Source: an uncultured archaeon
GTDB lineage: Archaea; Altiarchaeota; Altiarchaeia; IMC4; QMZM01
DNA length: 62,295 bases
Direction: 5' to 3'
NCBI GenBank assembly: GCA_965602195.1
Contig: CBFCYF010000002.1
Coordinates: 1-62,295 of the forward strand
Within the stretch, counting starts at the first letter, position 1. The number at the start of each line of letters is the position of its first letter. Shown in pieces: positions 318 through 24,746 of the stretch. The position numbers and the translations under genes were made by a program. Below the pieces are notes generated by a model. That model was not told the origin of the DNA. It ran no database searches and was given only the letters and a program-made list of their open reading frames with translations.

Positions 318-1493
318 TTGATGGCGTTAATTCCGCTTGATGGAAAGGAGACTCCGGAAGAAGCCGGGGGGGAGGTAATTACAAAGAAGAAAGAGCTGGG
401 ATTTGACTTGAATACAGTAGCCATTATCCTAGTCTCCATGATCCTCTTGTTTTCATTACTGTTTTTCCCCCAAACCGTTGAGGGTTATAAGACGCCCATC
501 AACCAGTGGATGTTGATTTTATTATGCATACTTGCTTTAATTGCCTTGATGGTACCGAGAGTTATCGTAAAGTTTCTGGAGTATGAAAGGGGGGTGGTAT
601 TTAGGATAGGCAAGTTCGATAGGATCGCAGGTCCCGGGTGGGCTATAATATTCCCTTTCATGGAGACGTATGCGAGAGTTGATTTAAGGCTGCATGTGTA
701 CACCATAGACCCCCAGGAGGTGGTGACCAAGGATAAGGTGAGATTCCTGATTTCCCCTGAGGTATTTATGTACATATCAAATCCCACAGATGCTGTATTG
801 AATGTTGAGAACGCTAAGGCTGCGACCTTAGGATATATCACTTCTTCTCTGAGACATGTTGGCGGCAACTCAACATCAGACTATATCATATCTCACATGG
901 ATGAGGTATCTCATATGCTTGAGGAGTCAATCCATCACATATCCACTCATCCAGGAAGGGGGTGGGGGGTAAGCGTGCCCCGAGTCAAGCTGACCTTGGT
1001 GAGGTTCCCAGATAGGGTGCAGGATGCTATGCATGAGAAGGTAGCCTCTGAACAGCTAAAGCTTGCTGCTCACGAAAAGGCGGCTGCAACCAAAATAGAG
1101 ATCGATGCCATAAGAGAAGCGGGCGGCAAACTCACTGATCCTGCAATAACCTATATGTATCTGGAGGCCTTGGATAAGATAGCAAGAGGCAGAGCAACCA
1201 AGATTATACTTCCCCTTGAGGTATCTAAGCTTGCAGAAACCATAACAAAAAGAACAGGACAGACCACAGCCCCCCCTGGTTTGCCTCTGGAAACGATAAA
1301 CGAGTATAAGGGCATCATAGACAGCTATGAGAAAAGGCTGAGCAGTATAGAGCATGGGCTGGTCAGGGAAGGAAAAACAGAAGAAAAAAGAGAAAGTGAG
1401 GAACAGAAAGACGTGGGCGCTGAAGAAGAGCGGGATGAGGAATACGATAGAAAGATAAGGCGCATCAAAAAAAGACTTGGGATGGACAGCTGA
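318..1493 (+). CDS. SPFH/band-7 (stomatin/prohibitin-like) membrane protein
   Basis: N-terminal TM helix followed by YERGVVFRIGKF...GPG...IDLR, typical of stomatin/HflK/C; charged coiled-coil C-terminus. Confidence 0.8.
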   Translation: MMALIPLDGKETPEEAGGEVITKKKELGFDLNTVAIILVSMILLFSLLFFPQTVEGYKTPINQWMLILLCILALIALMVPRVIVKFLEYERGVVFRIGKFDRIAGPGWAIIFPFMETYARVDLRLHVYTIDPQEVVTKDKVRFLISPEVFMYISNPTDAVLNVENAKAATLGYITSSLRHVGGNSTSDYIISHMDEVSHMLEESIHHISTHPGRGWGVSVPRVKLTLVRFPDRVQDAMHEKVASEQLKLAAHEKAAATKIEIDAIREAGGKLTDPAITYMYLEALDKIARGRATKIILPLEVSKLAETITKRTGQTTAPPGLPLETINEYKGIIDSYEKRLSSIEHGLVREGKTEEKRESEEQKDVGAEEERDEEYDRKIRRIKKRLGMDS

Positions 1494-1513
1494 GGGTTTA
1501 GAATGCATTATGT

Positions 1514-2155
1514 CTAGCAGGAACCTATGCTAACCCCACAGCTTCCACTTGCGGCGGGGGGGCAAGCTGCACATTCCACACAATAATCCCAGAAATTCTG
1601 GTCGCATTCTAGACTTACATCGAACTTGTTTCCGTCTGCGCAAAAGTTATCGTGGCTGTATACCTCACTTCCTGCGGCAATTATATCTGGGAGAGGTTTT
1701 GAGTCAGATAAGTCATCCTCAAGACATAAGCTGTAGTTGAGGGTAAATACCTTTACCTTGATGTTGCTTAACGTATAATTCAGGGAGTTATCTACTGTAA
1801 GCTCCAGACTCATCTGGTCATCTGGAAGTATACTCTGCCAGTTACGGGCTGTTATGGTTGGGTGAGGCTGAGCTGCAGGTAGCTTATATATCATCGTAAC
1901 TATGGTGCCTGCTATAATTATTATCAACAGCGCTAGTATAACCATTATAATGCCTTTCTTTGCCTCCTCTCTTGCGGCAGGGTTGGTTGCGGTTTTCCAT
2001 TTTACCCCATGCACCACTATCAGGAGCACAGCAAATCCTGCTGCAATTCCATACAGCAGGGATATCATATCTGCTACTGTTTCGCCCATGACTCCTGCCG
2101 TAACCAGATTCGGGATCAATAATATCACCGAAATTTTTATTAATTCTTTTTTCAT
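1514..2155 (-). CDS. Hairpin-motif membrane protein paralog 1 with a Cys-rich C-terminal ectodomain
   Basis: N-terminal leader/TM followed by LYGIAAGFAVLLIVVHGVKWKTATNPAAREEAKKGIIMVILALLIIIIAG (a two-TM hairpin shared with three other proteins); C-terminal region with 8 Cys. Confidence 0.65.
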   Translation of the reverse strand: MKKELIKISVILLIPNLVTAGVMGETVADMISLLYGIAAGFAVLLIVVHGVKWKTATNPAAREEAKKGIIMVILALLIIIIAGTIVTMIYKLPAAQPHPTITARNWQSILPDDQMSLELTVDNSLNYTLSNIKVKVFTLNYSLCLEDDLSDSKPLPDIIAAGSEVYSHDNFCADGNKFDVSLECDQNFWDYCVECAACPPAASGSCGVSIGSC

Positions 2156-2173
2156 TGTTTTTCTTTCAGGGAA

Positions 2174-2476
2174 TCAGAACATCATAGAAACCAGTGCTGC
2201 TGCTATTATTATTATCGCTAGGCCGATGACGACGTTGATTATGCCTCGTTTTGCGTTTTCCCTTACATCAGGGTTGTCTGTTGTTTTATATTTGATTCCG
2301 TGTATTGCTATCAGGAGGATGGCGATCCCGGCTGCGATTCCATATAATATGTAGTTGATGTCTCCTATAGTCTCACTGAATGTCTGTGAAGTCGCAGTTG
2401 TGCTGCCTGCCACCATCTGGGTTGACACTACCGTTAGTATCCTGGTTGTCTGTAGGGGGTGTCTTTTACTTGCCAT
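2174..2476 (-). CDS. Hairpin-motif membrane protein paralog 2 (minimal form)
   Basis: C-terminal YGIAAGIAILLIAIHGIKYKTTDNPDVRENAKRGIINVVIGLAIIIIAAALV; 100 aa; separated from its neighbours by 18 and 5 nt. Confidence 0.65.
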   Translation of the reverse strand: MASKRHPLQTTRILTVVSTQMVAGSTTATSQTFSETIGDINYILYGIAAGIAILLIAIHGIKYKTTDNPDVRENAKRGIINVVIGLAIIIIAAALVSMMF

Positions 2477-2481
2477 GGGTT

Positions 2482-3003
2482 TTAGCCTAGGATGTATTTC
2501 ACAAATTCTACGGCTGTTATTATGAGGATTAATGCGATTATTATGTAGACTATTGATTTTTTTGCATTATCCCGGACCTCGGGGTCTTGGGATGTTAGTA
2601 TGTATATTCCGTTGACGATGAGCATGAGTATTGCGAGTCCGGCGGCGATCCCGTATACTGCTGTTTCGATGTCTTTCAGGAATTTCTTTAGTTCACAGTC
2701 GCCTTGACACTGCCTGCATAATAGTTTTGTTGCTTTTTCAATATCTGTTGTATCTGTTAGGTTTTCGCATTTCTCGCCTAGGATGTTGCAGGCTTCCGGG
2801 TCTGTGATGTTATATAGAAATCCGATGCTATGGCAGTATTCCTCAACTGACAGTGCGGTGCAGCAGCTGTCGCCCATGCATCTTTGGCCTGTGGGGCAGC
2901 CTTTTATCTTGCAGTCGTCGCATATAGCATCTACTGTTGGGACTCCGGACAGGATTACTACTATGAGTAAGAAAATGATCCTATTTTTCGTTGTCTCTGG
3001 CAT
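2482..3003 (-). CDS. Hairpin-motif membrane protein paralog 3 with a signal peptide and Cys-rich N-terminal ectodomain
   Basis: Signal peptide MPETTKNRIIFLLIVVILSGVPTVDA; CxxC-rich domain; C-terminal VYGIAAGLAILMLIVNGIYILTSQDPEVRDNAKKSIVYIIIALILIITA. Confidence 0.65.
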   Translation of the reverse strand: MPETTKNRIIFLLIVVILSGVPTVDAICDDCKIKGCPTGQRCMGDSCCTALSVEEYCHSIGFLYNITDPEACNILGEKCENLTDTTDIEKATKLLCRQCQGDCELKKFLKDIETAVYGIAAGLAILMLIVNGIYILTSQDPEVRDNAKKSIVYIIIALILIITAVEFVKYILG

Positions 3004-3057
3004 TTTAGAGTGGTGATACCATTTCCTGGGTGTCTATAGCATCCAAGAAGTTCCTCT

Positions 3058-3444
3058 TCAGTAAATAGATATGTGACAACTACTATAAAAGTTTATTGGA
3101 GGTAGTAATCGTATCATGATCATTGTCTTGCAATCATTGCTCTCACTCTGTCGCCGGTGTTTTCGGTATGATCTGCTACCGGGGAGACCATAGATAAGAA
3201 GATTTTTTTTGGCGGACTTGAAGGGGTTTACAATATCCTTGCTTATTGCTTGGGTGACGTGGGTGCCTATGAGAACAGCTCTCACTATGTTCCGGATGGC
3301 GGCAAGAAATACAGTTCCACTAACGGTTATCACACCACTATCCACTGAGGTGCCCATGGAATTTGCAACATCATTTACCCTGATGTTCCACGCCATATAG
3401 AAGCCTACGACCCCTGTGAGTATAATGATAAAGATTAATTCCAT
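3058..3444 (-). pseudogene. Truncated PiT-family inorganic phosphate transporter remnant
   Basis: The first ~75 aa (WNIRVNDVANSMGTSVDSGVITV...IGTHVTQAISKDIV) align to the PiT/PHO-4 N-terminal signature [20 protein letters not shown]...GAKVGETIRKGIIDV, but two signature Gly are replaced by R and D. Homology is then lost, and a full transporter would be 330-400 aa. Confidence 0.6.
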
Positions 3445-3621
3445 TGAATAGTAAGGGGATTAACATACCTTAATTCAGGTGTGCTCCAGTGCTTTGTCTA
3501 CTGCCTCTGGGTTATATCCTTCTTCCTTCAATATCTGCTTCAACACTGTTGGGTCCTCTCCCTCCTTCACTTCTTCTTTCACCCAATCTATCATTTCGTC
3601 TTTTTCTTTCTTCTTATCTGC

Positions 3622-4269
3622 TTATTTCTTTCCTTCCAGTCTTTTATAAACCAGAAACAGGATGATGCAGAGGGCTATGATAAATAGAACCACGTATAGG
3701 GTGTAGTCGGTATTCTGGGGGGTGTATGTTCTTCCGCAATCTGTGTCTTCCTCAACCGCACAGTCGGGGTCGCATCTGCCGTCTTCTATTCCATCGCAGT
3801 AGTTGTCCTGCCCTCCAGAGGGACAGTCTAGGGGGCAGTTAATGTAGTTTTCCTTTCTATCTGACTCACATATGGTGTTGTTGTTACAAACCAGAATCGT
3901 TGTCGTATTAGTAGTCGGCCTCACACTAGTCGTACTCGTTGATATGGTTGTTGTGGGTGGACTTTTGACTTTAACGGAGACGCAGTCGGATTTTCCTCCT
4001 TCATCGCATAACACTTTCAGGTAGTATGTTCCTTCTTTTGGGGGTGACCATTTTACTTCGCTACTGGAGATGGTAAATCCGTAGAGGGGTGAGCCCTCAC
4101 ATCGTGTTTCGAATACATCCAGTGATCCGGCTCCGTGTGGGCAATCTGAGGTACACCTGCAGTTGCCTACGTAGCATTCGGGACATGATATTGTGATCCC
4201 GTGTGCTGTTCCCATCAACATCAGTAGTATTATCCCTCCTGTTATCTTGTTCATGGTTTCACCGGGCAT
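3622..4269 (-). CDS. Membrane-anchored Cys-rich surface protein
   Basis: Signal peptide; two Cys-rich modules separated by a Thr-rich linker (SPPTTTISTSTTSVRPTTNTTT); C-terminal TM plus KRLEGKK anchor. Confidence 0.6.
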   Translation of the reverse strand: MPGETMNKITGGIILLMLMGTAHGITISCPECYVGNCRCTSDCPHGAGSLDVFETRCEGSPLYGFTISSSEVKWSPPKEGTYYLKVLCDEGGKSDCVSVKVKSPPTTTISTSTTSVRPTTNTTTILVCNNNTICESDRKENYINCPLDCPSGGQDNYCDGIEDGRCDPDCAVEEDTDCGRTYTPQNTDYTLYVVLFIIALCIILFLVYKRLEGKK

Positions 4270-7200
4270 GTTATGTCTATTACTTCGGTTGATTTAGACC
4301 ACGCGATTGGGTCTTCTAGTTTCGGGTCGGATTCCAGATATGCTCTCCATGATACTTCATAGTCGCCGGGTTCTACGGTAGAACAATAAATGATTCCTGA
4401 GGCGGTCCCTGTTCCTTCTGGGGCTACTGATGTCGAGACGGTTACAATTTTCCCTGTTTTAGTGTTCTTGAACAGGAATAATATGATAATGTCTTCTCCG
4501 GCACTGTTTTCATAATCTAGGTTGCATCTATATCCGCCTTCTATTGGACTACTGACGAAACTGTTGAATGAGTATTTGCCTGGAGTAATTGTGGTTGTTG
4601 TTGTGTCGGAGATGGTTGTTGTGGTGGTATCTGGTGGTGTGGTTGTTGTTGTGTCTGAGGTGGTGGTTGTGGTGTCGGAGATGGTTGTTGTGGTGGTTGT
4701 GGGGCATTCTGGGCATGGGTCAAGTTCTTCCATCAGGTATCTTATGACGTGTCCGCAGTCTGCTCCGTATAGGGTTGTGAATATATGGGCTTCGTAGCAG
4801 GATCCTGTGTTGGGTGTGTTTGGGGTCATTTCCAGGTCTATCCATATCCAGAATTGTTCTCCGCAGTGGGGGCCTTCCCTGATTTCTATCAGGGCCTCCT
4901 GTGATTCTCCGCCGCCTTCTGCACAACCTGTTTGCGTGCATCCTAAGTCTATGATCTTTATGTTATATTTGCTGTCCGTCACCCATGTGGGGTTGCTGTG
5001 GCTGTGGCAATCTGCTGGGATGGTGGTTGTTGTTGTGGTGTCTGATGTGGTTGTTGTTGTGGTGTCGGAGATGGTTGTTGTGGTGTCGGAGATGGTTGTT
5101 GTGGTGGTTGTTGGCGGCGTTCCCGGACAATCCACTGGATCTGTTATGCATGAGCCAAGGGCACAATTTGTAATGGTGCTACACCCCCCATCCATACAAT
5201 AACTCTCAAGAACATCAAGAGGCCAGGGGAGTTCTCGGTCACACCATTCGCAGCTGTTATCCAGGCATTCGTGGCAGTTGTCAAGATCTCCGCATTCTGT
5301 AGGTATCACACAAGCTCCGTTTTTGCATCCGTAGCCGGTTGGGCACGTGATGTCGATGGTTTCTATATAGTATGTGTCGACGCAGTAGTGTTCCCTTAGT
5401 TTATCACCTATGCAGGCGTCTTTTCCTCCTGTTCTGATTCGTGCGTCTCTTTCATTGGCGGCGTGTTTTCTGAAACCATATGTGTGTGCTTGTGTATAAT
5501 AGTCTTTTCCATTATCCGGGTCTGAGCATGGTTGTTTGGTGGAGTCAAATACTCTGCAACTGTCGGTTTCTTGATCCCAGTAGCATGTTGTGATGTCAAG
5601 GCAATTATCCATTGTTTTTTTATCTAAGCATTCACTTGTGTTTATCGTTGTAGTGGTGGTTGTATCTCCCGTTGTAGTAGTGGTTGTATCTCCCGTTGTA
5701 GTAGTGGTTGTATCTCCCGTTGTAGTAGTGGTTGTATCTCCGCAGCATATGTCTCCGCAGCAGCCGCTGGTGCAGTCTTTCACGTATACCCAGTGATAAA
5801 TTGCTGTGGTTGTTGTGGTGTCTGATGTGGTTGTTGTTGTGGTGTCTGATATGGTTGTTGTTGTGTCGGAGATGGTTGTTGTTGTGTCTGATGTGGTTGT
5901 TGTTGTGTCTGATGTGGTTGTTGTGGATGAGCTTGTGGATGATGTGGTGGATGAGCTTGTGGATGATGTGGTGGATGAACTTGTGGATGATGTGGTGGAT
6001 GAACTTGTGGATGATGTGGTGGATGAGGTTGTGGTTGTGTCACAGTCTACAACCTTGAAGCTGTTTTCCTCTTCTGCTTCACACCCGTTTATTATTGCCT
6101 CTACGACAAACCTTCTGGTCCCAGGGATACCAAGATCGTCACTCCACTCATAGACGCCAGTAGTGACCCGTTCAAAGCCGTTCGTAACTAAAATACCATC
6201 TGGGTAGGGGTGGTATGGGTTGTAGAGTATTACCCGATACCAGGATGGGTCTGTCAACTTTCCATCATATCTAAATCTTAGGGTTGCAGTGAATGTATCA
6301 CCTTCACAGTATTCATCCTTATCGAATTTAATTTCTACGGAACAGTCTCCGCCACAGTATACAACCTCAACGCTGTTTTCCTCTTCTGCTTCACATCCCT
6401 CTATTGTTGCTTCTGCATCCACCTCCAGGGTTCCTGTTGCCACCATCGTGAATCTCGCTTCCTGTATACCTTCTGACTTTTTTGTAAAACGATCTGAGTA
6501 ATCGCCTCCATCTACCAGCACCCTCCTCCAGGATGGATCCGTCAAGTCTCCATCATGTTTGAATTTTAGAGTTATTACTACTTCGTCTCCCACACAGTAT
6601 TCTGCTTTGTCAAATTCAATGTCTATGGAACAGTCTGGGGGTGTGCCACACTCACCAATCCAAAAACTTGTGGATGCAGGACTTGTATACGCCATTTGGT
6701 CTGCACTATCATATACCTTCCCAGAGAAGTGGTATGTGCCCTCTGTGGGTGGTACGTACGTCCAAGTATTGGAGCATGTAGTACTAGTCCCAGTGCACTG
6801 ATGGCTGTGCCACAAACCCCCATATTCGGCCTCGAGTTTAGCCATATCTATGTCGTCATACCCATTTATAGTGATATACATTGGCTGCCCGACACAAGGT
6901 GTAGCTGGGGTGTAGCTGAGGGTGCCAGACGGAGGATTATCCTGTGATGCTACGCATACTCCGTCCTCGCATGTTTTTCCTGCGTTACAGTCAGAGTCAA
7001 TGCGGCATTCTACTACATTAACATATACGCATTGTGGGTCTGTCCAACTCTCCTGGGAGCTACTATCAAGTACATAGCCACAGTACTCATATGTGCCTGT
7101 GGTCGACTCTGAGAAATCCCAAAATTTTATGCATTCAGTCTGAGTTCCAGAGCAAGATTGATGGTGCCAGGTGTTACCATACCATGCACTGACTTTAGCT

Positions 7201-7775
7201 ACATCTATATCATCCCTCCCATTTACAGTGATTTCTATCTGCTCCCCAATAAGGGCGGGACCGCCAGATGGCCAGACAGCCAGGAAACCCCAGGGAGGAT
7301 TATCCTGTGATGCTACGCATACTCCGTTTTCGCATGTTTTTCCTGCGTTACAGTCAGAGTCAATGCGGCATTCTACTACATTAACATATACGCATTGTGG
7401 GTCTGTCCAACTCTCCTGGGAGCTACTATCAAGTACATAGCCACAGTACTCATATGTGCCTGTGGTCGACTCTGAGAAATCCCAAAATTTTATGCATTCA
7501 GTCTGAGTTCCAGAGCAAGATTGATGGTGCCAGGTGTTACCATACCATGCACTGACTTTAGCTACATCTATATCATCCCTCCCATTTACAGTGATTTCTA
7601 TCTGCTCCCCAATAAGGGCGGGACCGCCAGATGGCCAGACAGCCAGGAAACCCCAGGGAGGATTATCTCCTGCAACAGAGCCTGCCAGAATAACCGTAAT
7701 CAAAACCAAACATAGGAGTAAACTCTTCCATCTCATTTTACTTCCCTTCCCGTGGCTGATACTATATGACCTCAT
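4251..7775 (-). CDS. Giant secreted adhesin-like surface protein (1174 aa) with a tandemly duplicated domain and Thr/Ser-rich linkers
   Basis: N-terminal signal peptide (a more likely start is M14 at 7736). It carries two identical 121-aa domains (DNPPWGF...CVASQ) plus a divergent third copy, multiple Cys-rich modules, and DTTTTT(S/I), GDTTTTTT and STSSSTTSS linkers. Confidence 0.75.
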   Translation of the reverse strand: MRSYSISHGKGSKMRWKSLLLCLVLITVILAGSVAGDNPPWGFLAVWPSGGPALIGEQIEITVNGRDDIDVAKVSAWYGNTWHHQSCSGTQTECIKFWDFSESTTGTYEYCGYVLDSSSQESWTDPQCVYVNVVECRIDSDCNAGKTCENGVCVASQDNPPWGFLAVWPSGGPALIGEQIEITVNGRDDIDVAKVSAWYGNTWHHQSCSGTQTECIKFWDFSESTTGTYEYCGYVLDSSSQESWTDPQCVYVNVVECRIDSDCNAGKTCEDGVCVASQDNPPSGTLSYTPATPCVGQPMYITINGYDDIDMAKLEAEYGGLWHSHQCTGTSTTCSNTWTYVPPTEGTYHFSGKVYDSADQMAYTSPASTSFWIGECGTPPDCSIDIEFDKAEYCVGDEVVITLKFKHDGDLTDPSWRRVLVDGGDYSDRFTKKSEGIQEARFTMVATGTLEVDAEATIEGCEAEEENSVEVVYCGGDCSVEIKFDKDEYCEGDTFTATLRFRYDGKLTDPSWYRVILYNPYHPYPDGILVTNGFERVTTGVYEWSDDLGIPGTRRFVVEAIINGCEAEEENSFKVVDCDTTTTSSTTSSTSSSTTSSTSSSTTSSTSSSTTSSTSSSTTTTSDTTTTTSDTTTTISDTTTTISDTTTTTTSDTTTTTAIYHWVYVKDCTSGCCGDICCGDTTTTTTGDTTTTTTGDTTTTTTGDTTTTTTINTSECLDKKTMDNCLDITTCYWDQETDSCRVFDSTKQPCSDPDNGKDYYTQAHTYGFRKHAANERDARIRTGGKDACIGDKLREHYCVDTYYIETIDITCPTGYGCKNGACVIPTECGDLDNCHECLDNSCEWCDRELPWPLDVLESYCMDGGCSTITNCALGSCITDPVDCPGTPPTTTTTTISDTTTTISDTTTTTTSDTTTTTTIPADCHSHSNPTWVTDSKYNIKIIDLGCTQTGCAEGGGESQEALIEIREGPHCGEQFWIWIDLEMTPNTPNTGSCYEAHIFTTLYGADCGHVIRYLMEELDPCPECPTTTTTTISDTTTTTSDTTTTTPPDTTTTTISDTTTTTITPGKYSFNSFVSSPIEGGYRCNLDYENSAGEDIIILFLFKNTKTGKIVTVSTSVAPEGTGTASGIIYCSTVEPGDYEVSWRAYLESDPKLEDPIAWSKSTEVIDITCPVKP
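5647..5741. repeat. 24-bp coding tandem repeat x4 (GDTTTTTT)
   Basis: gttgtagtagtggttgtatctccc is repeated four times. Confidence 0.85.
5921..6030. repeat. 27-bp coding tandem repeat x4 (STSSSTTSS)
   Basis: The unit gatgatgtggtggatga(g/a)cttgtg is repeated; similar imperfect ggttgttgttgtggtgtcggagatg repeats occur at about 4596-4720, 5021-5115 and 5806-5900. Confidence 0.8.
6931..7656. repeat. Perfect 2 x 363-bp tandem duplication inside the giant gene
   Basis: Sequence 6931-7293 is repeated at 7294-7656 with no visible mismatches; it encodes the duplicated 121-aa domain. Confidence 0.9.
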
Positions 7776-7777
7776 TT

Positions 7778-8596
7778 TTATTCACACCTATATAACTTAG
7801 AATCGGCACAGCATGTGGCGCCGAAGGTCGGGCACTCACCTCCCTCAACGCATTGTGTTATCGTCGTAGTGGTTGCTGGAGTAGTTGAGGTAGTGGTTGT
7901 ATCCGTCGTCGTAGTGGTTGATGGAGTAGTTGAGGTAGTGGTTGTATCCGTCGTCGTAGTGGTTGCTGGAGCAGTTGTTGTCGTGACTACAGCTTCACAG
8001 TCCAGCAGGCATAACTCATAATAAACCTCGGCGGCCTCATAACATGCCTCTTTAAGTCCACTGCATACGCTGCTGGGATACCCTGCCCTAGTGCAGAGCT
8101 CGTATCTCCCATCACATGTTTCATGACGGTACTCTTTTGTGAGATCACATATCTCCGTGCATGAGGATGTCGCTTGGAGGATATTCACAATCGGCTCCCC
8201 GGAGTAGACTCCGGCATAAGAGCAGTCGGCTTCACCCATATCCTTATGTCCAAGATAGAATATAATGATGTCACTCACCTGCTCCCTGCTGAACCTGCTG
8301 GTGCCCACCGGTTTAGTAGTGTAGTCTCCCACCACCTCATGCACCATAGACCTGAAATCAGCATCTGAGGGGCAGGGAAACGGTTGGTCAGGAGGGCATA
8401 ACCCGACAAGCTCCTCGATTTCGCCGTCACTGAGGGAGGTGTATGTCTTCAGGTAATCCCTCATCTTGTCCTCCACCTCCCTATCAAAGCTCTGGTCAAA
8501 ATCAAAAGCCAAGGAGTTTGAGATCAGGAGCAATAGAGACAACAATATAGACATCAAAATAATTTTATTTCCTATGTTCTTCGTTATATTTAACAT
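7778..8596 (-). CDS. Secreted protein with a Thr-rich C-terminal linker and terminal Cys knot
   Basis: Signal peptide MLNITKNIGNKIILMSILLSLLLLISNSLA; a C-terminal 15-aa repeat TTTTTDTTTTSTTPS; it sits 2 nt upstream of the giant gene. Confidence 0.6.
   Translation of the reverse strand: MLNITKNIGNKIILMSILLSLLLLISNSLAFDFDQSFDREVEDKMRDYLKTYTSLSDGEIEELVGLCPPDQPFPCPSDADFRSMVHEVVGDYTTKPVGTSRFSREQVSDIIIFYLGHKDMGEADCSYAGVYSGEPIVNILQATSSCTEICDLTKEYRHETCDGRYELCTRAGYPSSVCSGLKEACYEAAEVYYELCLLDCEAVVTTTTAPATTTTTDTTTTSTTPSTTTTTDTTTTSTTPATTTTITQCVEGGECPTFGATCCADSKLYRCE
7861..7980. repeat. 45-bp coding tandem repeat of about 2.7 copies
   Basis: tcgtcgtagtggttg(c/a)tggagtagttgaggtagtggttgtatccg is repeated. 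Confidence 0.8.
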
Positions 8597-8663
8597 TTTT
8601 TTTCAGGTTAATGGGATGAGTAATCCTTTTAGGTGGTTAAGCTGCCTCCTCTGGTTCCATGAT

Positions 8664-8978
8664 CTAGCTTACAGTGAGACAGCATTTCTTCAGGTGTTTG
8701 CAGCACTCTTGTGGCGTCACCATGTTGAGTTCCCGGAGTTTTGTGTAGCATGTTCCGGCTTCGTCTGCGGCATTACATGCATCCACCTGGATGTCTGAGA
8801 GGGCTTCGGCTGGTGTCCCAGCTGGTAGCGTTGTTGTTTCCGCTGGCGGTTGCTCCGATGTCTCAGACGAGATAAGAACATATGCAAGTATACAGAGAAC
8901 TGCTATTCCGGTCACAGTAAATATCGTTTTACTCTCCATTCCACTACCTACTGTATTCTTTATTAATATATTATGCAC
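8664..8978 (-). CDS. Small secreted Cys-containing protein
   Basis: TM/signal segment IFTVTGIAVLCILAYVLISS followed by a Thr/Pro linker and 6 Cys; the start is probably the internal MESK. Confidence 0.45.
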   Translation of the reverse strand: MHNILIKNTVGSGMESKTIFTVTGIAVLCILAYVLISSETSEQPPAETTTLPAGTPAEALSDIQVDACNAADEAGTCYTKLRELNMVTPQECCKHLKKCCLTVS

Positions 8979-9017
8979 TAGACTACTATAAAAACATTTC
9001 GTTTGTTTAAGTTACAT

Positions 9018-9587
9018 CTAGATGGTAGTTGTGATGCAACAGTCACCGTAGGTTATGCAGCAGCATTCTACATAATCTACTCCGCAGAAATTATCCAGGC
9101 CGGCGGGAAAGCCGGCAAAGCATGTCCCCCAACCATCATGATCTTTGCATTTAGTTTCTGAATCTGGGCATGATGCCGCAAATACTGCCTCACAGTATTG
9201 GAGTGGCGGCACCCATCCCCCCTCATCACATCCAAAGGGAAGTATGTCTGTATTATCAATTAAATAATTAATCACTGGCAGCGCAACCAAAACTATGATC
9301 ACCCCTATGAAGATATGTGAAATCCTGCCCCGTATATCATTCCTCTGCTCTATATCTTCAGTCGTCATATACTCTATGCCGTACACGATCAAAGCCAGGG
9401 TGGCTAAAAGGCCTATGATCAACCAGATAGTGTCCAGGAGAAAGCAGACTATGTCATTAATTCGGCGTATAATCATATCCACATCAGAGAGTGTTGTGGT
9501 TGGCGTCTGTGCCCAGACTGGGGAAATCAAGGCTGACACCATCAATAATATGAGTACACTCTTCCATAATCTAATCTGTAATCCCAT
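9018..9587 (-). CDS. Hairpin-motif membrane protein paralog 4 with a Cys-rich C-terminal ectodomain
   Basis: Signal peptide; hairpin LIVYGIEYMTTEDIEQRNDIRGRISHIFIGVIIVLVAL aligns with the hairpins of 1514-3003; C-terminus CCCITYGDCCITTTI. Confidence 0.6.
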   Translation of the reverse strand: MGLQIRLWKSVLILLMVSALISPVWAQTPTTTLSDVDMIIRRINDIVCFLLDTIWLIIGLLATLALIVYGIEYMTTEDIEQRNDIRGRISHIFIGVIIVLVALPVINYLIDNTDILPFGCDEGGWVPPLQYCEAVFAASCPDSETKCKDHDGWGTCFAGFPAGLDNFCGVDYVECCCITYGDCCITTTI

Positions 9588-9699
9588 CCTAATAAATTAT
9601 ATGTGACTAGAGAATATAAACGTTTCGCATTATATCCCCCCCTTTTTTTTGCTGTCCAGATTTAAGTAACTATTCCCATAAATTCTTTGGTTTCTAAAA

Positions 9700-11730
9700 A
9701 TGAGCACCCTCATCATCACCGAAAAGCCAAGTGTGGCGGCCAGAATCGCCAGCTCCATCGGAAACGCCGACAAGAAAAGCAAAAACGGAGTCCCCTACTA
9801 TGAAGTCAACGGCGACTATGTTGCCCCAGCAGTAGGACACATACTCTCCCTGGATGAAAAGAAGAAAGCCGGGTGGAGGTATCCTGTATTTGACATAGAG
9901 TGGAAGCCCTCCTACACAGTAAATAAGGGCTCTAAATTCACCAAACAATACTTTAACAACATAAAATCTCTCGCAAAAAAATGTGATTCATATATAAACG
10001 CCTGCGATTATGACCTCGAGGGAGAGGTGATAGGATTTAATGTTATAAAACACATCTGCGAGGTGGACCCCACATCCCCTAAGGTTTTAAGGATGAAGTA
10101 CTCCACCCTTACAAAGGAATCCATAACCCGGGCATATGAAAACCTGGAGTCCCCCAATAAAGGGATGGCGGATGCGGGATTAACAAGACATATCCTTGAC
10201 TGGTACTGGGGCATAAACCTCTCCCGGGCCTTAACCCTGGCTGTCAGACGGGCACGGGGTTACACCACACTGAGTATCGGGAGAGTTCAGGGTCCTGCCC
10301 TGAAGATTCTGGCTGTGAGAGACAGGGAGATAAAGAAATTTAAGCCAACGCCTTACTGGGAGATAGAGATGCTGGCGGTTAAAGACAAAAAAAAGATATC
10401 TGCTATGCATTCAGGAGGCAGGTTCCTGGAGAAAGAGAAGGCGGAGTCTGTTAAGAAGAGATGTGGGAAAACAACTGTCGTGGAAAGCACACGCAGAAGT
10501 AAAATCCAACAAAAACCTCCCTCCCCCTTCGACCTCACCACACTCCAGACAGAGGCATATAAACACCTTAATATCGCCCCCAGGGATACCCTGCAGATCG
10601 CCCAGGAGCTATATACTAACGCATACATCAGCTACCCGAGAACCTCATCCCAGCAGTTACCCAGGGAAATAGATTTCAGAGAGATAATCAGGAAACTCTC
10701 AGGGATATACGGGAAGGAAACAGGCATCCTACTGTCAAAGAAGAAGCTTACCCCCTGTAATGGGAAGAAGAAGGATCCCGCTCACCCAGCCATCCACCCT
10801 ACCGGTGAGACTCCCACGAGCATAGCAGGAGGTAGAAAGAAAATATATGACCTGATATGCCGGAGGTTCTTCGCCACCTTCGGAGACATTGCAGTCAGAG
10901 AAACCATGACCATAAAATTAGATAATAACTCTGAGATATTCATAGCTAAAGGCACCCTAACTGTTGAGAAGGGATGGCATACCCTCTACGGCAGATATGC
11001 TAGATTCAAGGAGGAAGAGTTACCGGAACTCAGAAAAGGCGACAAGCTGAAGGTGGAGAAAATAACCGTATATGGGAAGGAAACCCAGCCACCTAAGAGA
11101 TACACGCCCTCATCCATTATCCGGGAAATGGAGAAGAGAGACCTGGGAACTAAAGCCACACGCTCCCATATCCTGGACATTCTGTTTAAGAGAGGCTATT
11201 TGAAGGGTAAATCCATAGAAGTCACTCCTTTAGGGATGAAGGTGGTTGATACCATGGACAAGTATTGTCCTGAGGTAGTCAGTGTGAAACTAACCCGGAA
11301 ATTCGAGGATGAGATGAAACAGATAGAGTCCGGGAAACTCCCTATGGCGGAAGTTGTTAAGGAGGGGGAGGAAATGCTGATAAAGATATCCAAAGAGTTC
11401 ACGGGGAATGAGAAAGAAATCGGGGAATCCCTGGCGTCCTCTCTGATAAGTACCCGGGAAGAGAAAAAAGAGGGTCTAGGTAAATGCATGAAATGTGATG
11501 GAAACCTTGTCCTTAGAAAATCAAAATTCGGCGGCTATTTCGTCGGATGCGACAGCTACCCCCAATGCAGGTTCACTATTTCTATGCCTAAAGGTAATTT
11601 GAAGGAATCAGGTAAATGTAAGGAATGCGGCTACTCAAAGATAACTGTGTTCAGGGGTAAGGGTAAAAAACCCTGGTCATTCTGCATTAACCCTAAGTGC
11701 CCTACAAAGAAGAGATTCAATGCCCGGTAA
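9700..11730 (+). CDS. topA: DNA topoisomerase I (type IA) with C-terminal zinc ribbons
   Basis: Toprim N-terminus; active-site Tyr context ELYTNAYISYPRTSS; C-terminal CMKCDG...CDSYPQCRF and CKECG...C zinc ribbons. Confidence 0.85.
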   Translation: MSTLIITEKPSVAARIASSIGNADKKSKNGVPYYEVNGDYVAPAVGHILSLDEKKKAGWRYPVFDIEWKPSYTVNKGSKFTKQYFNNIKSLAKKCDSYINACDYDLEGEVIGFNVIKHICEVDPTSPKVLRMKYSTLTKESITRAYENLESPNKGMADAGLTRHILDWYWGINLSRALTLAVRRARGYTTLSIGRVQGPALKILAVRDREIKKFKPTPYWEIEMLAVKDKKKISAMHSGGRFLEKEKAESVKKRCGKTTVVESTRRSKIQQKPPSPFDLTTLQTEAYKHLNIAPRDTLQIAQELYTNAYISYPRTSSQQLPREIDFREIIRKLSGIYGKETGILLSKKKLTPCNGKKKDPAHPAIHPTGETPTSIAGGRKKIYDLICRRFFATFGDIAVRETMTIKLDNNSEIFIAKGTLTVEKGWHTLYGRYARFKEEELPELRKGDKLKVEKITVYGKETQPPKRYTPSSIIREMEKRDLGTKATRSHILDILFKRGYLKGKSIEVTPLGMKVVDTMDKYCPEVVSVKLTRKFEDEMKQIESGKLPMAEVVKEGEEMLIKISKEFTGNEKEIGESLASSLISTREEKKEGLGKCMKCDGNLVLRKSKFGGYFVGCDSYPQCRFTISMPKGNLKESGKCKECGYSKITVFRGKGKKPWSFCINPKCPTKKRFNAR

Positions 11731-13888: not shown

Positions 13889-13917
13889 TAACAAACAAAA
13901 AAAACAACGTAACGCCC

Positions 13918-13991
13918 GCATAGGGTAGCATGGATATCCTGGGGGATTGCGGATCCCCTGACTCGGGTTCAAATCCCGGTGCGGGCAAACA
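13918..13991 (+). tRNA. tRNA-Arg(GCG)
   Basis: GCCCGCA acceptor pairs with TGCGGGC; anticodon arm GGGGA-TTGCGGA-TCCCC gives anticodon GCG; T arm TCGGG-TTCAAAT-CCCGG; discriminator A. Confidence 0.8.
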
Positions 13992-14147
13992 CTTGTGGGC
14001 TCGTTTCCCAACGACACACTGCGGTTTCAATACTTAAGCTTCGTTGAAAACCGTTGATCCCTGTTTAGGCTAATTTTTTCCGGCAACAAATCCCGGCACA
14101 TGTCCAGCTGATCTACCAGTTAATTCATCAGATAATCCCTTTAAAAG

Positions 14148-14900
14148 TTATTCATCGTTATCGCAGATGTTGTTAACATTTTTATCCAAGCAGCAGCCTC
14201 TGCCGTGGCGGATGTAAGGTGGATTGCAGACGACTTTCTTCGCTTCCGGTTCCTCTCTGCTAAACCCAATGAGACGCTTCATCTCCCCCACCACCGACTT
14301 GACGATGTTGACAACCTCGCCGACGGCCTCCTTCACAAACCCAGTTGCTCTCTCAATGATTCCCCGCTCTTTTTCCGGCGACTCACCGGCTCCCGCCAAC
14401 AACCCCTCCACCTGCACAAACTCTCCCTCCAGCTTCATAGACTCCAAGACTGGCTGAGCCTCCCAAGCATATCCGATGAGGTCCTCCTCCTGAGCGGAGA
14501 CAGTCGCCAGATACAACCGACCCCCAGCTGTGAAGACGTCATTGATGACGTAGACGTCAGGGTCGTTGGGGAGGTTAGACATGAAACGCATTGTTTTCTG
14601 GCCCGCAACATCCCCTGAGGGCATGTCCCTCAACAGGGCTCCAAACGTCTCAAGTTGCTTGCGGTACAAACGAATGGCGTCGCTGCCGCTTCCATTAAGA
14701 GGCACCCACGTCGCTGACAAGAGGACATCTCCAGGTTTTTCTGTGTGGGTGAGGGAGAGCATGTTATCTGTTTTGCCGCTGATACGCCAGCGGTTGCTGT
14801 ACTCCAAGGTGATGCCGTTGGTTTCGGCGGTGTGGGTTGCGGCACCTGATGTGAACAACAACACAAACACCACCCCCAAAATCATCTTCTTTAAGTTCAT
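14148..14900 (-). CDS. Secreted hypothetical protein in the GC-rich island
   Basis: Signal peptide MNLKKMILGVVFVLLFTSGAATHTA; C-terminal Cys cluster; a 4-nt ATGA overlap with the upstream gene. Confidence 0.6.
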   Translation of the reverse strand: MNLKKMILGVVFVLLFTSGAATHTAETNGITLEYSNRWRISGKTDNMLSLTHTEKPGDVLLSATWVPLNGSGSDAIRLYRKQLETFGALLRDMPSGDVAGQKTMRFMSNLPNDPDVYVINDVFTAGGRLYLATVSAQEEDLIGYAWEAQPVLESMKLEGEFVQVEGLLAGAGESPEKERGIIERATGFVKEAVGEVVNIVKSVVGEMKRLIGFSREEPEAKKVVCNPPYIRHGRGCCLDKNVNNICDNDE

Positions 14901-17647
14901 TTTGATGTTGGAATAAATGTTTGAATAACACTATTTGCGACATTGTGAACATCACGGCTTCCCTCACGAGTCTTGACGTCGCCGGGTCTCCCGTTCAAGT
15001 ATCCCACCCATGTGTTGACGACTGCCGTATCCCCCCCGGGTGATGTGCGCAACATGCCGATGTGCTGAAGCTTGTCGTTGTAGTCTGCGATGTGGCGAAG
15101 CATGTGGCCCTGGGACTGGGCGAGCGTTTGCTGGCTCTGAAGCATCTGGTTGAAGGCCCTACGTGCGCCGGCATCGTCGCCGTCCCTAATGGCTTGGGCT
15201 GCCTGTTGCTCGTATCTTAGTGTCTGGTCGGCTTGGGACAGCACATTACGCCTGCGGGGGACGTTCTCCTGGCTGAAGGCGCCGACTCGGCTCCTGCTGC
15301 TCTGGACTTCACTCACATAGTTGGTGTTGCCCTTTACGTTCCCCTTAAAGTCGTTGAAGTTGCGGGTTGTGCTGGAGGCGCGGGCTACGCCGACGTTGTT
15401 GGCTACGTTGTTGTCGCGGTTTTTCTGCCCCCTGATCGTGTTCTCCAGGCGGTCGAGGTTGTCCATGCCGTAGGCGCCGCGCATCAAAGCCTGCTGGTTG
15501 AGGCCGATGAACTTGAAGACGCCGCTCATCGCGTTCATGGTTCCCTCAATAGCGCCGGTTGCCTCGTAGCCGAGGAAGTGGTCGCTTATCTTGATGATTT
15601 CGTTGTACATCTTATTCTTCATGGGGCCTGTCATCTTCTGGGCGATGTATTGTTTGATTGCTGTGGTCCCCGCCACGTAGACTGAGTTCGGGACGTAGTT
15701 TTTGATGGCGTCGGTCACTATCTTCTCATATCCCTGGATTGCGTAGAGGCTGTCGATGACTGCGGCTCCGGAGCGGGTCCGGTAGATGGACTTACCTATC
15801 TTGTCTACTCTAAACGCAGCCGAAAGTCCCCCTTGGAGCGTCGACTGTGAGGTCAAGCCGAGGCGCTGGGCCAAGCCCAGGTTTGCGGCGCGGCCGAGCT
15901 GCGCCGACGGCCCGAACGTGAGAAAGGTGTCCCAAGCGGAAAACTGGCGTGAAACAAAGTCTGCTTCGTTGTACTTAAGAATCTCTGTGTCGAAGTAGTC
16001 GCGTCCGATGTCGATGTTATACTGGGTCTTGTCGCCGTTGCGTATTGCGTTGACGTCTACGTTTCTGAAGGCGTCCCAGATGCGCTGTCTGAGCTTCTGG
16101 GCTTGGTCGTCTGTTAAGTCCTTCCCGTAGTGTTCCTTGATCACCTCCTTCAGTCTGTCCTTGCTGAACTTGTTCATTTCCTCAAAGGTGACCCCCTGGC
16201 GACGCAGGTCTTCTACCAGCTTGATGCCTGCTATCTGGCGGGTGGCCTCGTCCACCTGGAGGTCGGCCATGTCCCCGAGTATGTCGTAGTAGCCAGCTAG
16301 TGCCCCTATACTCTCTCCTACGCCTGTGGTGGCGACGTCGATGAGGATGTTGCCGATGCCCGCCTCGCCGTGGCTGTTGAGTTTGTCGTTGAATAACCTA
16401 GCGGTTTTGCTCATGTCCACTGAGAGGTGGTCACGGATGCGCTGCAGGTATTCGAGTTCGACGTTTTGGATGATGCGATTGGCAAAGAGGTTGTCTGGCT
16501 CTTCCTCAAGGATCTTGCGTGCGCTGTGGAGGGCCATGCGGGTGTCGCCTTCCATCTGCTGGCGGAAGACGTTTAGGGTGAGGGCGTCGACTCGGGCGCG
16601 TGGGTTGGCTGTGAGCTTGGGGAGCATCTCGTCGAACTTGTGGGTGGCTCCGCAGCGGAGCGTTAAACTCAGGTGGGTCATGTCGAGCTCTGTGCGGAGG
16701 AGGTTCAGGTAGTTAGAGTATTCATCACGGTGTTTGTAGTCGAAGAAGCCTCCATCCATGTTGTCGAGGATTTCATAGAGCTTTGAGGCTTGTCGCTCGA
16801 ATTCTTCAAGCAACTTGTCCTGCTCCTCACGGAGACGTTCAAGGTCCTTTTTGGCTTCTTCTTTATCTTCCTCTGATCCGTGCTTGAGCATCCATTCAGC
16901 GTCCCTGATCTGGGAGAGGATGTAGTCTGCTTCAGCGTAGAGGTCTTTAATGTCTTTGAGGAATCGGTTCTTCAAGGCTAGGTAGTCGACGACGTTGCGG
17001 GTGATGGCCCGTACTATCTTCTGTTGCTCGGTTTCCTCGGTCTCGACGCAGACGCATTCGTTGGGTTCGCTGTCTTCCTGCGAGAACTCGGTGCCTGGTT
17101 CCCGCTTGCAGACGTCCTCACATGATTCGCAGCCGTCGGCTGTCATCTGCCAGCCTACTTCGCAGATGCCTGTGCAGTCCCCTGAGTCGTCGATGACGCC
17201 TATCATATGTTCGCCTTTCTTCCGCCAATATTTGTCACATTCATCCTCTTCTTCGCTGTCGTATTCGCGGGCGGTGGATGTGGTCGGCGGCGAGGTCAAG
17301 GTCGTCGTCTCGCCGGGGCAGGGTTCATCGGGGAGGACGCATTTAATGAGGTAGCTGCCTGGACAAAAGTTGCCGCACTTCTTGCGGTCGAAGCTCTCGT
17401 AGTCTACAGGTCTTCTACAAGCTTTTGAGTACTTGTCCTCTTCCGGGTCGTCGATGTTGTCATTGGCAGCGCAGATGCAGGCCCGAGTGTAGCTCCAGTG
17501 GGCGTGGGGGCGGTTGTTGCAGTCCTCCTGTACACATCCCACACCGCTCATACGCTGCCAAGTAAAATCGGGAGGGCATTCGACTGCAGTAACACAGTTG
17601 GCCAACAAAAACAGGGAGAGCACGGTTACATAAAGCCTTTCTGTCAC
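14897..17647 (-). CDS. Large secreted protein (916 aa) with a Cys-rich N-terminal domain and long alpha-helical/coiled-coil region; GC-rich island
   Basis: Signal peptide MTERLYVTVLSLFLLANCVTA; 20+ Cys in the first 200 aa; the rest is helical. Local GC is about 55-58%, against about 40% elsewhere. Confidence 0.65.
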   Translation of the reverse strand: MTERLYVTVLSLFLLANCVTAVECPPDFTWQRMSGVGCVQEDCNNRPHAHWSYTRACICAANDNIDDPEEDKYSKACRRPVDYESFDRKKCGNFCPGSYLIKCVLPDEPCPGETTTLTSPPTTSTAREYDSEEEDECDKYWRKKGEHMIGVIDDSGDCTGICEVGWQMTADGCESCEDVCKREPGTEFSQEDSEPNECVCVETEETEQQKIVRAITRNVVDYLALKNRFLKDIKDLYAEADYILSQIRDAEWMLKHGSEEDKEEAKKDLERLREEQDKLLEEFERQASKLYEILDNMDGGFFDYKHRDEYSNYLNLLRTELDMTHLSLTLRCGATHKFDEMLPKLTANPRARVDALTLNVFRQQMEGDTRMALHSARKILEEEPDNLFANRIIQNVELEYLQRIRDHLSVDMSKTARLFNDKLNSHGEAGIGNILIDVATTGVGESIGALAGYYDILGDMADLQVDEATRQIAGIKLVEDLRRQGVTFEEMNKFSKDRLKEVIKEHYGKDLTDDQAQKLRQRIWDAFRNVDVNAIRNGDKTQYNIDIGRDYFDTEILKYNEADFVSRQFSAWDTFLTFGPSAQLGRAANLGLAQRLGLTSQSTLQGGLSAAFRVDKIGKSIYRTRSGAAVIDSLYAIQGYEKIVTDAIKNYVPNSVYVAGTTAIKQYIAQKMTGPMKNKMYNEIIKISDHFLGYEATGAIEGTMNAMSGVFKFIGLNQQALMRGAYGMDNLDRLENTIRGQKNRDNNVANNVGVARASSTTRNFNDFKGNVKGNTNYVSEVQSSRSRVGAFSQENVPRRRNVLSQADQTLRYEQQAAQAIRDGDDAGARRAFNQMLQSQQTLAQSQGHMLRHIADYNDKLQHIGMLRTSPGGDTAVVNTWVGYLNGRPGDVKTREGSRDVHNVANSVIQTFIPTSK

Positions 17648-17969
17648 ATCACACCACCTCGTTTAAAATATTTATTTTCTTTCCCTCCTTAAATAGCTGA
17701 AAGTAGTGTCCAGCCTTCACACCAGCTCATCATCTGATTTTTTGAAATCTCCATCATCATACCTATTATCTATTATTATTTAAAGAAAAAAAATCGAGTT
17801 TACAGCAGAGCAAGAATATGAGGTTTGAAAATCACTTGTTTCTCATCCTCCGGCTCCAGATTACCTCACCTATTAAGTCCTAAAGTGGTAGCTATCAAAC
17901 AAACAAAAGGTTTTTATAGAAGCGGGTCTAATTATTTACAGTTGTAAAAAAGTTAAACGACAATCTTAA

Positions 17970-18548
17970 ATGAAAAGATTCAGACTTATTGTTGACGGGG
18001 ATGTAACTGGTGTTAGATATAGAGATTATGTGCAAAAAACAGCGTTAAAGCACAAACTTCACGGATCTGTTGAAAACATGAAGGACCGAACAGTGGAGAT
18101 AATCTGTGAGGGGGGAGACAAGAACATTCACAACTTCATCGAAGAACTAAAGGATGCTGAGGGGGAAGGGAGATGGCATATTGAAGGCTATCCTAATGCT
18201 GAGGTGAATAAAGTCCAGGCCATAGAAGAGAAGTCAACAGGTAAATTCACAACATTTGAAATAAAACATGGCAGCATGGAAGAGGAACTAGGTGACCAGA
18301 TGGGTGCGTCATACAATATTCTGCTCGATTACGCTTCATCTATAAGAAAAATAGATGAAAAATATGGCGTCATATCTGTAAACATGGAGGCGTCAGCCAA
18401 GGCAATAACATTACTCAGTGGGACATTAACAAAACTTAACACCACTCTTGAGGATGATAGGAAAGCTATGAAGTCTGACCGGGAGATGATGAAAAACCTA
18501 GCTGAGAAGATAGAGAAAAGCATAGCGGCCCTTTCTAGTAGAAAGTAA
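17970..18548 (+). CDS. Acylphosphatase-like domain protein with a coiled-coil C-terminus
   Basis: N-terminal RLIVDGDVTGVRYRDYVQKTALKHKLHGSVENMKDRTVEIICEG resembles the acylphosphatase fold motif (V.G.VQGV.FR...A..LGL.G.V.N..DG.VE). Confidence 0.5.
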   Translation: MKRFRLIVDGDVTGVRYRDYVQKTALKHKLHGSVENMKDRTVEIICEGGDKNIHNFIEELKDAEGEGRWHIEGYPNAEVNKVQAIEEKSTGKFTTFEIKHGSMEEELGDQMGASYNILLDYASSIRKIDEKYGVISVNMEASAKAITLLSGTLTKLNTTLEDDRKAMKSDREMMKNLAEKIEKSIAALSSRK

Positions 18549-23714: not shown

Positions 23715-23715
23715 C

Positions 23716-24741: not shown

Positions 24742-24746
24742 TTTTT

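Follow-up and report, generated by a model that had tools for sequence, protein, structure and literature searches.

Tandem arrays of divergent genes for VirB2 pilins are found in Patescibacteria, Bartonella, and Anaplasma (Quinonero-Coronel et al. 2025; PMC12102498). In Patescibacteria, which have an MPF-FATA-like type IV secretion system (T4SS), the pilin genes are often, but not always, located near virB4. Among archaea, structures of VirB2-like pili have been determined for two DNA-import systems, Ced and Ted, whose pilins are CedA1 and TedC, respectively (Beltran et al. 2023; PMC9905601). A further relative is the conjugation module of the Mycoplasma integrative conjugative element (ICE), which consists of a pilin-like protein (Mbov_0395), a transmembrane (TM) protein (Mbov_0396), and a VirB4 (Mbov_0397). 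To our knowledge, archaeal conjugation-type pili have so far been known only from Ced and Ted of Thermoproteota. Here we consider four genes in a 62,295-nucleotide stretch of DNA from an uncultured member of the Altiarchaeota (contig CBFCYF010000002.1; hereafter the window), the products of which are, as judged by their sequences, paralogous members of the VirB2/TrbC (T4SS_pilin) family.

An earlier note on the window had proposed that four proteins share a hairpin module with the topology of VirB2, TrbC, and CedA1 pilins, and had held the resemblance to be topological only. The four open reading frames (ORFs) are present where the note had placed them, all on the minus strand, and encode proteins of 213, 100, 173, and 189 amino acids (aa), by which lengths we refer to them (Table 1). 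All four exceeded the cut-off of 26.6 bits for PF18895 (T4SS_pilin), with scores of 37.7 (213-aa protein), 53.5 (100-aa protein; E 2.5e-14, the best of the four), 48.0 (173-aa protein), and 33.6 bits (189-aa protein). Two also passed the cut-off of 27.9 bits for PF04956 (TrbC/VirB2), namely the 100-aa protein (36.4 bits) and the 173-aa protein (31.1 bits), the other two falling below threshold at 15.5 and 23.2 bits. Scores against NF045849, the NCBIfam model of the Mbov_0395 family of pilin-like conjugal transfer proteins, were 40.8, 39.5, 25.3, and 25.1 bits, and the equivalog cut-off of 40 was reached by the 100-aa protein alone (40.8 bits). In the database search, the homologue closest to the 100-aa protein (88% identity) was annotated as 'TrbC/VirB2 family protein [Candidatus Altiarchaeales archaeon]'. 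Profile similarity to pilin families is thus present, and with curated Pfam cut-offs exceeded, the resemblance is one of sequence homology and not of topology only; the reading of the proteins as VirB2/TrbC pilins is borne out. Membership in the CedA1 group was not upheld: the Altiarchaeal VirB4 described below lies far under the CedB cut-off, and module profiles (A2 and A4) retrieved no pilin chain at E <= 10 from the PDB chain sequences, a set in which the inclusion of the Ced and Ted chains is unconfirmed. Because public annotation pipelines already assign the family name, the advance lies in context and architecture and not in a new fold or family.

The four proteins align across about 66 aa that comprise two hydrophobic helices and a polar loop, confirming the common module. 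Identity of the module to that of the 100-aa protein is 56% for the 213-aa protein and 41% and 21% for the other two. The motif that the earlier note had derived, YGIAAGxAILLIxxHGIKYxTxxNPxxRExAKKxI, fits three of the proteins closely and the 189-aa protein only loosely, its version being WLIIGLLATLALIVYGIEYMTTEDIEQRNDIRGRI. Nevertheless, the 189-aa protein matches PF18895 independently (E 4e-8), and sharing of the module is therefore not due to chance. When the window was translated in six frames and every ORF of 35 aa or more was searched with a profile of the module, exactly these four genes and no fifth were recovered. The module is N-terminal in the 213-aa protein, C-terminal in the 100-aa and 173-aa proteins, and central in the 189-aa protein, as had been claimed. 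Two TM helices joined by a short loop are likewise evident, but the description of that loop as basic does not hold throughout: counted by hand over the inter-helix stretch, its net charges are +3, +2, 0, and -2. What is conserved is a loop arginine, which is invariant in the four proteins and nearly so across 28 diverse members of the family, among which a loop lysine is nearly invariant as well.

Hydropathy indicated a signal-like N-terminal segment (weak in the 100-aa protein) and two TM segments in each of the four proteins. Cysteines are distributed in a distinctive manner. The 213-aa protein has 8 in a C-terminal ectodomain of 121 aa, the 173-aa protein has 12 in its N-terminal ectodomain, and the 189-aa protein has 11 in a C-terminal tail of 77 aa; the 100-aa protein has none. 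All 8, 12, and 11 of these residues lie before the first TM helix or after the second, and none is in the loop. Since no cysteine falls within the hairpin and all would be on the side of the membrane to which the signal peptide leads, the additional domains are expected to face outward. Taken together with what is established for the topology of VirB2 pilins, this distribution predicts that the loop is cytoplasmic and both termini are outside while the pilin resides in the membrane, and hence N-terminal and C-terminal fusions would alike end up on the exterior. AF2 models gave a helical hairpin (residues 8-65 and 69-99; pLDDT 83) for the 100-aa protein and a small N-terminal cysteine domain followed by a hairpin (residues 87-137 and 141-172; pLDDT 76) for the 173-aa protein.

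To place the genes in a wider context we searched for related loci with a five-sequence alignment as the query. All eight of the related genome loci came from metagenome-assembled genomes (MAGs) of Altiarchaeales or Altiarchaeota. They contain arrays of one to four module genes, the products of which range from 96 to 759 aa and in some cases include a PKD or transglutaminase-like domain. Homologues of the 213-aa protein in six loci (L001-L006) align with it over the module alone, from which it follows that its C-terminal domain is variable; to judge from these alignments, orthologous pilins of this kind retain the hairpin and not the ectodomain. The 173-aa protein has full-length orthologues at 43-45% identity (L005 9506-9985 and 6981-8588, and L006 3918-6197), and homologues of the 189-aa protein are found at L006 10308-11426, L006 1332-2309, L002 11517-12413, and L003 19473-20162.

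Linkage of pilin genes to VirB4 and other T4SS genes, which is absent from the window, was seen for paralogues or orthologues in five loci (L008-L012), where genes for PrgI/VirB3-like and VirB4-like proteins directly adjoin the paralogous pilin genes. Directly upstream of its two pilin genes, L008 has a gene for a PrgI-like protein (33.2 bits) and one for a 757-aa VirB4-like ATPase, which matches PF19044 (90.5 bits), DUF87, and AAA_10. L009 and L012, which are from two different Altiarchaeota (a 537-kb and a 174-kb contig, respectively), have a common gene order: large polytopic proteins, a zinc-ribbon protein, a 400-aa protein, a PrgI/TraC-like protein, VirB4, an ORF of 51-55 aa, two to three pilins, and then SepRS, ThrRS, RpiA, and prefoldin. 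L007 carries the pilin-SepRS end of a locus of this type. Meanwhile, in L010 and L011 (contigs of 1.56 and 1.36 Mb), eight module genes flank VirB4, and their products include forms of 211-442 aa with PKD domains or with N-terminal domains containing 18-32 cysteines; these fusions are of the same architecture class as the 173-aa protein. For the Altiarchaeal VirB4, over 100 cluster representatives were found, with identities of 58-83%; among those with an organism name, all but two are from Altiarchaeota or Altiarchaeales, and one is from Altiarchaeales IMC4, on a 1.39-Mb contig. Of 18 VirB4 clusters that we inspected, none includes an accession from a sister MAG (KAU03_, MCK449...). Within 10 kb, neither a relaxase nor a coupling protein is annotated, and no HerA, Rad50, or ParA genes were found beside the core loci. 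Given the high conservation of VirB4 and the synteny of the core with housekeeping genes (SepRS, ThrRS, RpiA, and prefoldin), we take this to be a vertically inherited host system.

The VirB4 of L008 scored 308.9 bits against the CD1110-type VirB4 model of NCBIfam, from Firmicutes (cut-off 325), 257.7 bits against Mbov_0397, and only 52.9 bits against NF041017 (CedB), for which the cut-off is 700. Mbov_0397 is matched in its N-terminal part by the PrgI-like protein of the Altiarchaeota and over the remainder by the ATPase. By these profile matches, the Altiarchaeal ATPase is of the monoderm (MPF-FATA) kind.

Two further observations concern proteins encoded outside the window. Upstream of the PrgI-VirB4 genes of L009 are two genes (325-5322 and 5781-7829) for large polytopic membrane proteins that match no known family and in which a hairpin resembling T4SS_pilin was detected, at a sub-threshold 16-17 bits, inside a multi-TM region; these proteins are candidates for channels of the VirB6/CedA-like type. 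In addition, the top matches of an exhaustive profile search were 'poly-pilins' (P0129, 1775 aa; P0130-P0141, with P0132 of 1382 aa) having 4-17 tandem VirB2-like hairpins per polypeptide. Their repeat consists of a cysteine, a first TM helix, a loop of the form W-M-S/T-S-D-D-P-x-x-R-x-x-A-K, a second TM helix, and a cysteine-containing linker. The 90% cluster of P0132 includes KAU03_03175, from an Altiarchaeales MAG that also has near-identical homologues of the window pilins. We know of no concatenated pilins of this kind that have been described.

How, then, does the locus compare with known systems? It conforms to VirB2/TrbC pilins in its signal peptides, its two hydrophobic helices, and its short polar loop with conserved basic residues, and in the location of Altiarchaeal paralogues beside VirB4 and VirB3-like genes. 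It departs from them in its Altiarchaeales host, in the distance of the window genes from any motor, in the failure of the module profiles to match a solved pilin chain, and in the cysteine-rich, presumably extracellular domains of 77-121 aa that precede or follow the hairpin in three of the four proteins. The closest described situation is that of the Patescibacteria T4SSs with their VirB2 arrays (PMC12102498). An array is there defined as at least two PF18895/PF04956 genes of low mutual identity that are in tandem or have non-pilin genes between them, a definition under which the window falls. The two share the PF18895 family, divergence among paralogues (25% mean identity in Patescibacteria vs 21-56% in the window), a chromosomal location, a monoderm-related VirB4, and the lack of a relaxase annotated nearby. 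They differ in that the Patescibacteria host is bacterial and not archaeal and in that the Altiarchaeal core is syntenic with SepRS and ThrRS; ectodomain fusions and co-clustered giant cysteine-rich proteins, prominent in the window, receive no mention in the consulted passages of the Patescibacteria report.

Like the Altiarchaeal system, Ced and Ted are archaeal, chromosomal, and apparently domesticated minimal T4SSs, composed of a VirB4-like ATPase, a polytopic protein, and a VirB2-like pilin; TedC has a cleaved signal peptide, and the components can be split between distant loci (PMC9905601). Unlike Ced and Ted, which have one bare pilin, the Altiarchaeal system has multiple paralogues with ectodomains, and its ATPase best fits the CD1110-type VirB4 rather than CedB. 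The system is not of the Ced type, and Ced and Ted provide a functional analogy only. As for the Mycoplasma ICE, Mbov_0395 is the sole pilin family of NCBIfam that was matched by all four proteins, but only one of the four reaches its equivalog cut-off, and the window genes are chromosomal, are not part of an ICE, and include ectodomain fusions. Finally, the published subunit of the hami, the grappling-hook appendages of Altiarchaeum, is a large S-layer-like protein, which would speak against a link between hami and these pilins.

The reading that we favor, and to which we would assign a probability of about 60%, is that the four genes are part of a dispersed and diversified pilin array, with one bare and three ectodomain-bearing members, that serves a chromosomal, monoderm-type (MPF-FATA-like) T4SS. 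Each protein would enter the membrane via Sec by means of its N-terminal signal peptide and would reside in the cytoplasmic membrane as a two-helix hairpin, with the arginine-containing loop in the cytoplasm, both ends directed outward, and the cysteine-rich N-terminal or C-terminal domains outside the cell. A VirB4-like ATPase, a PrgI/VirB3-like protein, and polytopic membrane proteins, presumably encoded outside the window in this genome, would then extract the pilins and most likely polymerize them into a conjugation-type filament whose lumen would be lined by the loop and whose surface would carry the termini. As the major subunit, the best candidate is the 100-aa protein, and the three ectodomain-bearing forms could be surface-decorating or minor subunits that provide variable adhesive surfaces. 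Together with the cysteine/threonine-rich secreted proteins with which they appear to be co-transcribed, and which may be partners or cargo, the pilins would mediate variable adhesion or cell-to-cell contact. We infer signal-peptide cleavage (at sites predicted after VTA, VDA, and VWA), polymerization, display of the ectodomains on the filament, and the biological role; of the roles, adhesion or cell-to-cell contact is likely, and DNA exchange, by analogy with Ced and Ted (PMC9905601), is possible.

Several considerations weigh against this reading. The MPF-FATA monoderm systems, to which the Altiarchaeal VirB4 is closest, are not known as builders of VirB2 pili (PMC12102498). With 77-121 aa in the window and as many as several hundred in relatives, the ectodomains may also be too bulky for the tight helical packing of known T4SS pili, and filament formation itself is something that we infer. 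With loop charges ranging from +3 to -2, the positive-inside rule backs the proposed topology in only two of the four proteins. A Foldseek search of the PDB with the AF2 model of the 100-aa protein returned nothing at E <= 1e-3, and the matches that were seen were to generic helical hairpins (histidine-kinase DHp domains and encapsulin cargo proteins); because a two-helix hairpin is too simple, a fold search cannot discriminate, and the structural evidence, including the absence of a solved pilin from the profile search, does not do so. As the earlier note had remarked, no other T4SS component is encoded in the window: Pfam scans of the larger ORFs and tblastn with the Altiarchaeal core locus revealed no VirB4, no PrgI/VirB3, and no VirB6-like protein in the 62 kb.

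Some of the same considerations favor the alternative that the hairpin is a membrane anchor only, and that the four gene products are non-polymerizing surface proteins with cysteine-rich adhesin or matrix domains that operate independently of a T4SS motor. Three of the four have sizeable ectodomains, and the PKD, transglutaminase-like, and cysteine-rich domains of several hundred aa in their relatives would be hard to pack; the lack of known VirB2 pili in MPF-FATA systems (PMC12102498) and of a motor in the window cluster points in the same direction. Furthermore, other secreted or anchored cysteine-rich proteins dominate the cluster and share domains with pilin ectodomains, and some module genes have housekeeping genes as neighbors (ScpB, for instance, in L001 and L003). 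However, the bare 100-aa form is conserved even though it has no ectodomain to anchor, and fusions of the same architecture are encoded immediately beside VirB4 and PrgI in L009-L011. The conservation of the loop arginine and lysine across the family suggests, in turn, that the module is more than a generic anchor. All told, we consider the anchor explanation to be unlikely, although it is one to be taken seriously.

It is quite improbable that the genes are left over from a mobile T4SS module, be it an integrated conjugative element or a plasmid, and do not belong to a host system. ICE or conjugation families do, it is true, provide the best matches in NCBIfam (Mbov_0395 and Mbov_0397 of the Mycoplasma ICE, and CD1110), the cluster contains a truncated PHO4 gene, and an IS481-type integrase gene, together with tRNA-Arg, lies 9-10 kb from the distal end of the cluster at 9587. 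But genes for a topoisomerase and a cysteine desulfurase separate the integrase from the cluster, the window has no VirB4 and, in the same Pfam and tblastn searches, no coupling protein or relaxase, and the base composition is regular, with a GC content over the cluster of 0.44-0.47, in line with the window and with no anomaly across 1.5-9.6 kb. Nor were relatives of the pilin or of the cluster DNA found among mobile elements: there was no plasmid match by tblastn, no phage match by megablast of 1400-9700, and no match to a viral contig in IMG/VR. The window is evidently a piece of archaeal chromosome, containing genes for deoxyhypusine synthase, ATP-dependent DNA ligase, HMG-CoA reductase, CDP-archaeol synthase, and other housekeeping functions, some of which flank the cluster, and the synteny of the VirB4/pilin core with SepRS, ThrRS, RpiA, and prefoldin across Altiarchaeota, at 58-83% identity for VirB4, is likewise at odds with a mobile remnant. 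That the pilin matches are a compositional artefact of two hydrophobic helices in four unrelated small membrane proteins is scarcely credible, for although TM families draw spurious low-level matches (several unrelated ones were seen at E 1e-4 to 0.4) and the structure and PDB-sequence searches yielded no pilin, scores of up to 53.5 bits surpass the curated thresholds of two independent libraries, the loop has a specific polar motif that is conserved, and homologues repeatedly adjoin VirB4 and PrgI.

If the favored reading of a T4SS-serving pilin array is extended to the phylum, the Altiarchaeota could have a vertically inherited, relaxase-less chromosomal T4SS whose pilins have radiated into bare forms, forms with ectodomains (cysteine-rich, PKD, or transglutaminase-like), and forms with 4-17 concatenated hairpins, and which would build decorated filaments for adhesion or for intercellular exchange of DNA or protein in subsurface biofilms. 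We put this broader proposal forward tentatively, as a possibility that falls well short of even odds; if it is true, this would be a third archaeal filament system derived from a T4SS, besides Ced and Ted, and the first with pilins that display ectodomains. Members of the Altiarchaeota are abundant in subsurface biofilms. What is new is a monoderm-type T4SS lineage that is fixed in archaeal chromosomes and has a dispersed repertoire of ectodomain-bearing pilins: a whole archaeal lineage keeps a conserved chromosomal VirB4/VirB3-like core together with many diversified VirB2-type pilins. Should the pilins polymerize, then T4SS pilins can bear sizeable surface domains, an apparatus for contact or DNA exchange would be indicated in an uncultivated archaeal group, and the monoderm-type T4SS of Candidate Phyla Radiation (CPR) bacteria would gain an archaeal counterpart. 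In the searchable literature we found no work that joins Altiarchaeota with VirB4, only passing mentions of Altiarchaeota together with type IV secretion, and no account of the fused pilin architectures or of the Altiarchaeota system.

Table 1. Genes of the pilin cluster and of the neighboring tRNA-Arg/integrase region (positions in the window)
Feature	Position	Strand	Remarks
Pilin-module protein, 213 aa	1514-2155	minus	signal peptide, hairpin (aa 25-92, nt 1880-2083), then C-terminal ectodomain
Bare VirB2/TrbC-family pilin, 100 aa	2174-2476	minus	weak signal-like N-terminus and hairpin module (aa 35-100, nt 2177-2374)
Pilin-module protein, 173 aa	2482-3003	minus	signal peptide, N-terminal ectodomain, C-terminal hairpin (aa 105-173, nt 2485-2691)
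PHO4 remnant, 128-aa ORF	3058-3444	minus	match limited to positions 3-62 of the PHO4 phosphate-transporter profile (350 positions)
Protein, 215 aa, 17 Cys	3622-4269	minus	signal peptide, Cys/Asp-rich repeat, C-terminal TM anchor
Giant secreted protein, 1174 aa, 65 Cys	4251-7775	minus	tandem 121-aa repeats, poly-Thr linkers
Secreted protein, 272 aa, Cys (16)/Thr-rich	7778-8596	minus	one N-terminal hydrophobic segment
Small protein, 104 aa, 7 Cys	8664-8978	minus	one N-terminal hydrophobic segment
Divergent pilin-module protein, 189 aa	9018-9587	minus	signal peptide, central hairpin (aa 45-112, nt 9252-9455), C-terminal tail
tRNA-Arg(GCG)	13914-13987		
Orphan secreted protein, 250 aa	14148-14900		no Pfam match
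Orphan secreted protein, 916 aa, 20 Cys	14897-17647		no Pfam match
IS481-type integrase (rve)	18666-19535		

The gene for the divergent, 189-aa pilin is the first of a minus-strand cluster that continues with the genes for the 104-aa, 272-aa, 1174-aa, and 215-aa proteins and the PHO4 remnant and ends with the three tandem pilin genes, about 6 kb downstream and in the same orientation (Table 1). A TATA-like sequence, TTTATATT, was recognized by eye about 35 nt 5' of the ATG of the first gene. Packing is operon-like in the pilin triplet, where the gaps are 5 and 18 nt, and the gene for the 272-aa protein is separated by 2 nt from the next gene on the same strand. The truncated PHO4 gene between the cysteine-rich genes and the triplet suggests a past rearrangement or insertion at that site.

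Alignments with other Altiarchaeota identify the accessory cysteine-rich genes as conserved companions of pilin genes. Homologues of the 104-aa protein, for which no Pfam family scored above threshold, are encoded next to pilins of the 189-aa type at 45-60% identity (L002 13175-13441 and L003 19182-19430). No Pfam family was found for the 1174-aa protein either; its N-terminal repeats share 38-43% identity with the ectodomain of the pilin-module protein at L006 1332-2309, and its C-terminus matches the product of L005 11861-14149, which adjoins a pilin array. The repeat of the 215-aa protein recurs at 44-72% identity in genes that are interleaved with pilin genes (L002 10681-11544, several in L005, and L006 2333-3892). 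For the 272-aa protein, only sub-threshold matches to mucin-like Pfam families were obtained.

Two other parts of the window were considered as sources of T4SS components and rejected. A T2SSE ATPase gene at 55926-57494 could have been taken for virB11, but it comes with two T2SSF genes and encodes a PilB3_C domain, and so it belongs to type IV pilus machinery. Indeed, 55926-59555 on the plus strand is an archaeal type IV pilus-type locus, with the T2SSE ATPase (PF00437, 123 bits; PilB3_C) followed by two T2SSF proteins, and constitutes a filament system distinct from the T4SS pilins. The orphan secreted proteins encoded at 14148-17647 have no similarity to Altiarchaeal core proteins. Both are encoded in a stretch after tRNA-Arg in which the GC content is 0.51-0.54, compared with about 0.45, and the region 13914-19535 may be an integrated island.

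Finally, we note two other loci on the minus strand of the window. At 22836-25652, genes for a MoxR-type AAA ATPase (AAA_3), a DUF58/VWA protein, and a DUF7502 protein follow one another in a row and constitute a MoxR-VWA chaperone-like module. At 37311-42602 is a gene for a 1763-aa alpha-2-macroglobulin, a protein uncommon in archaea, with MG2, MG3, bait-region, thioester (TED), and receptor-binding domains.

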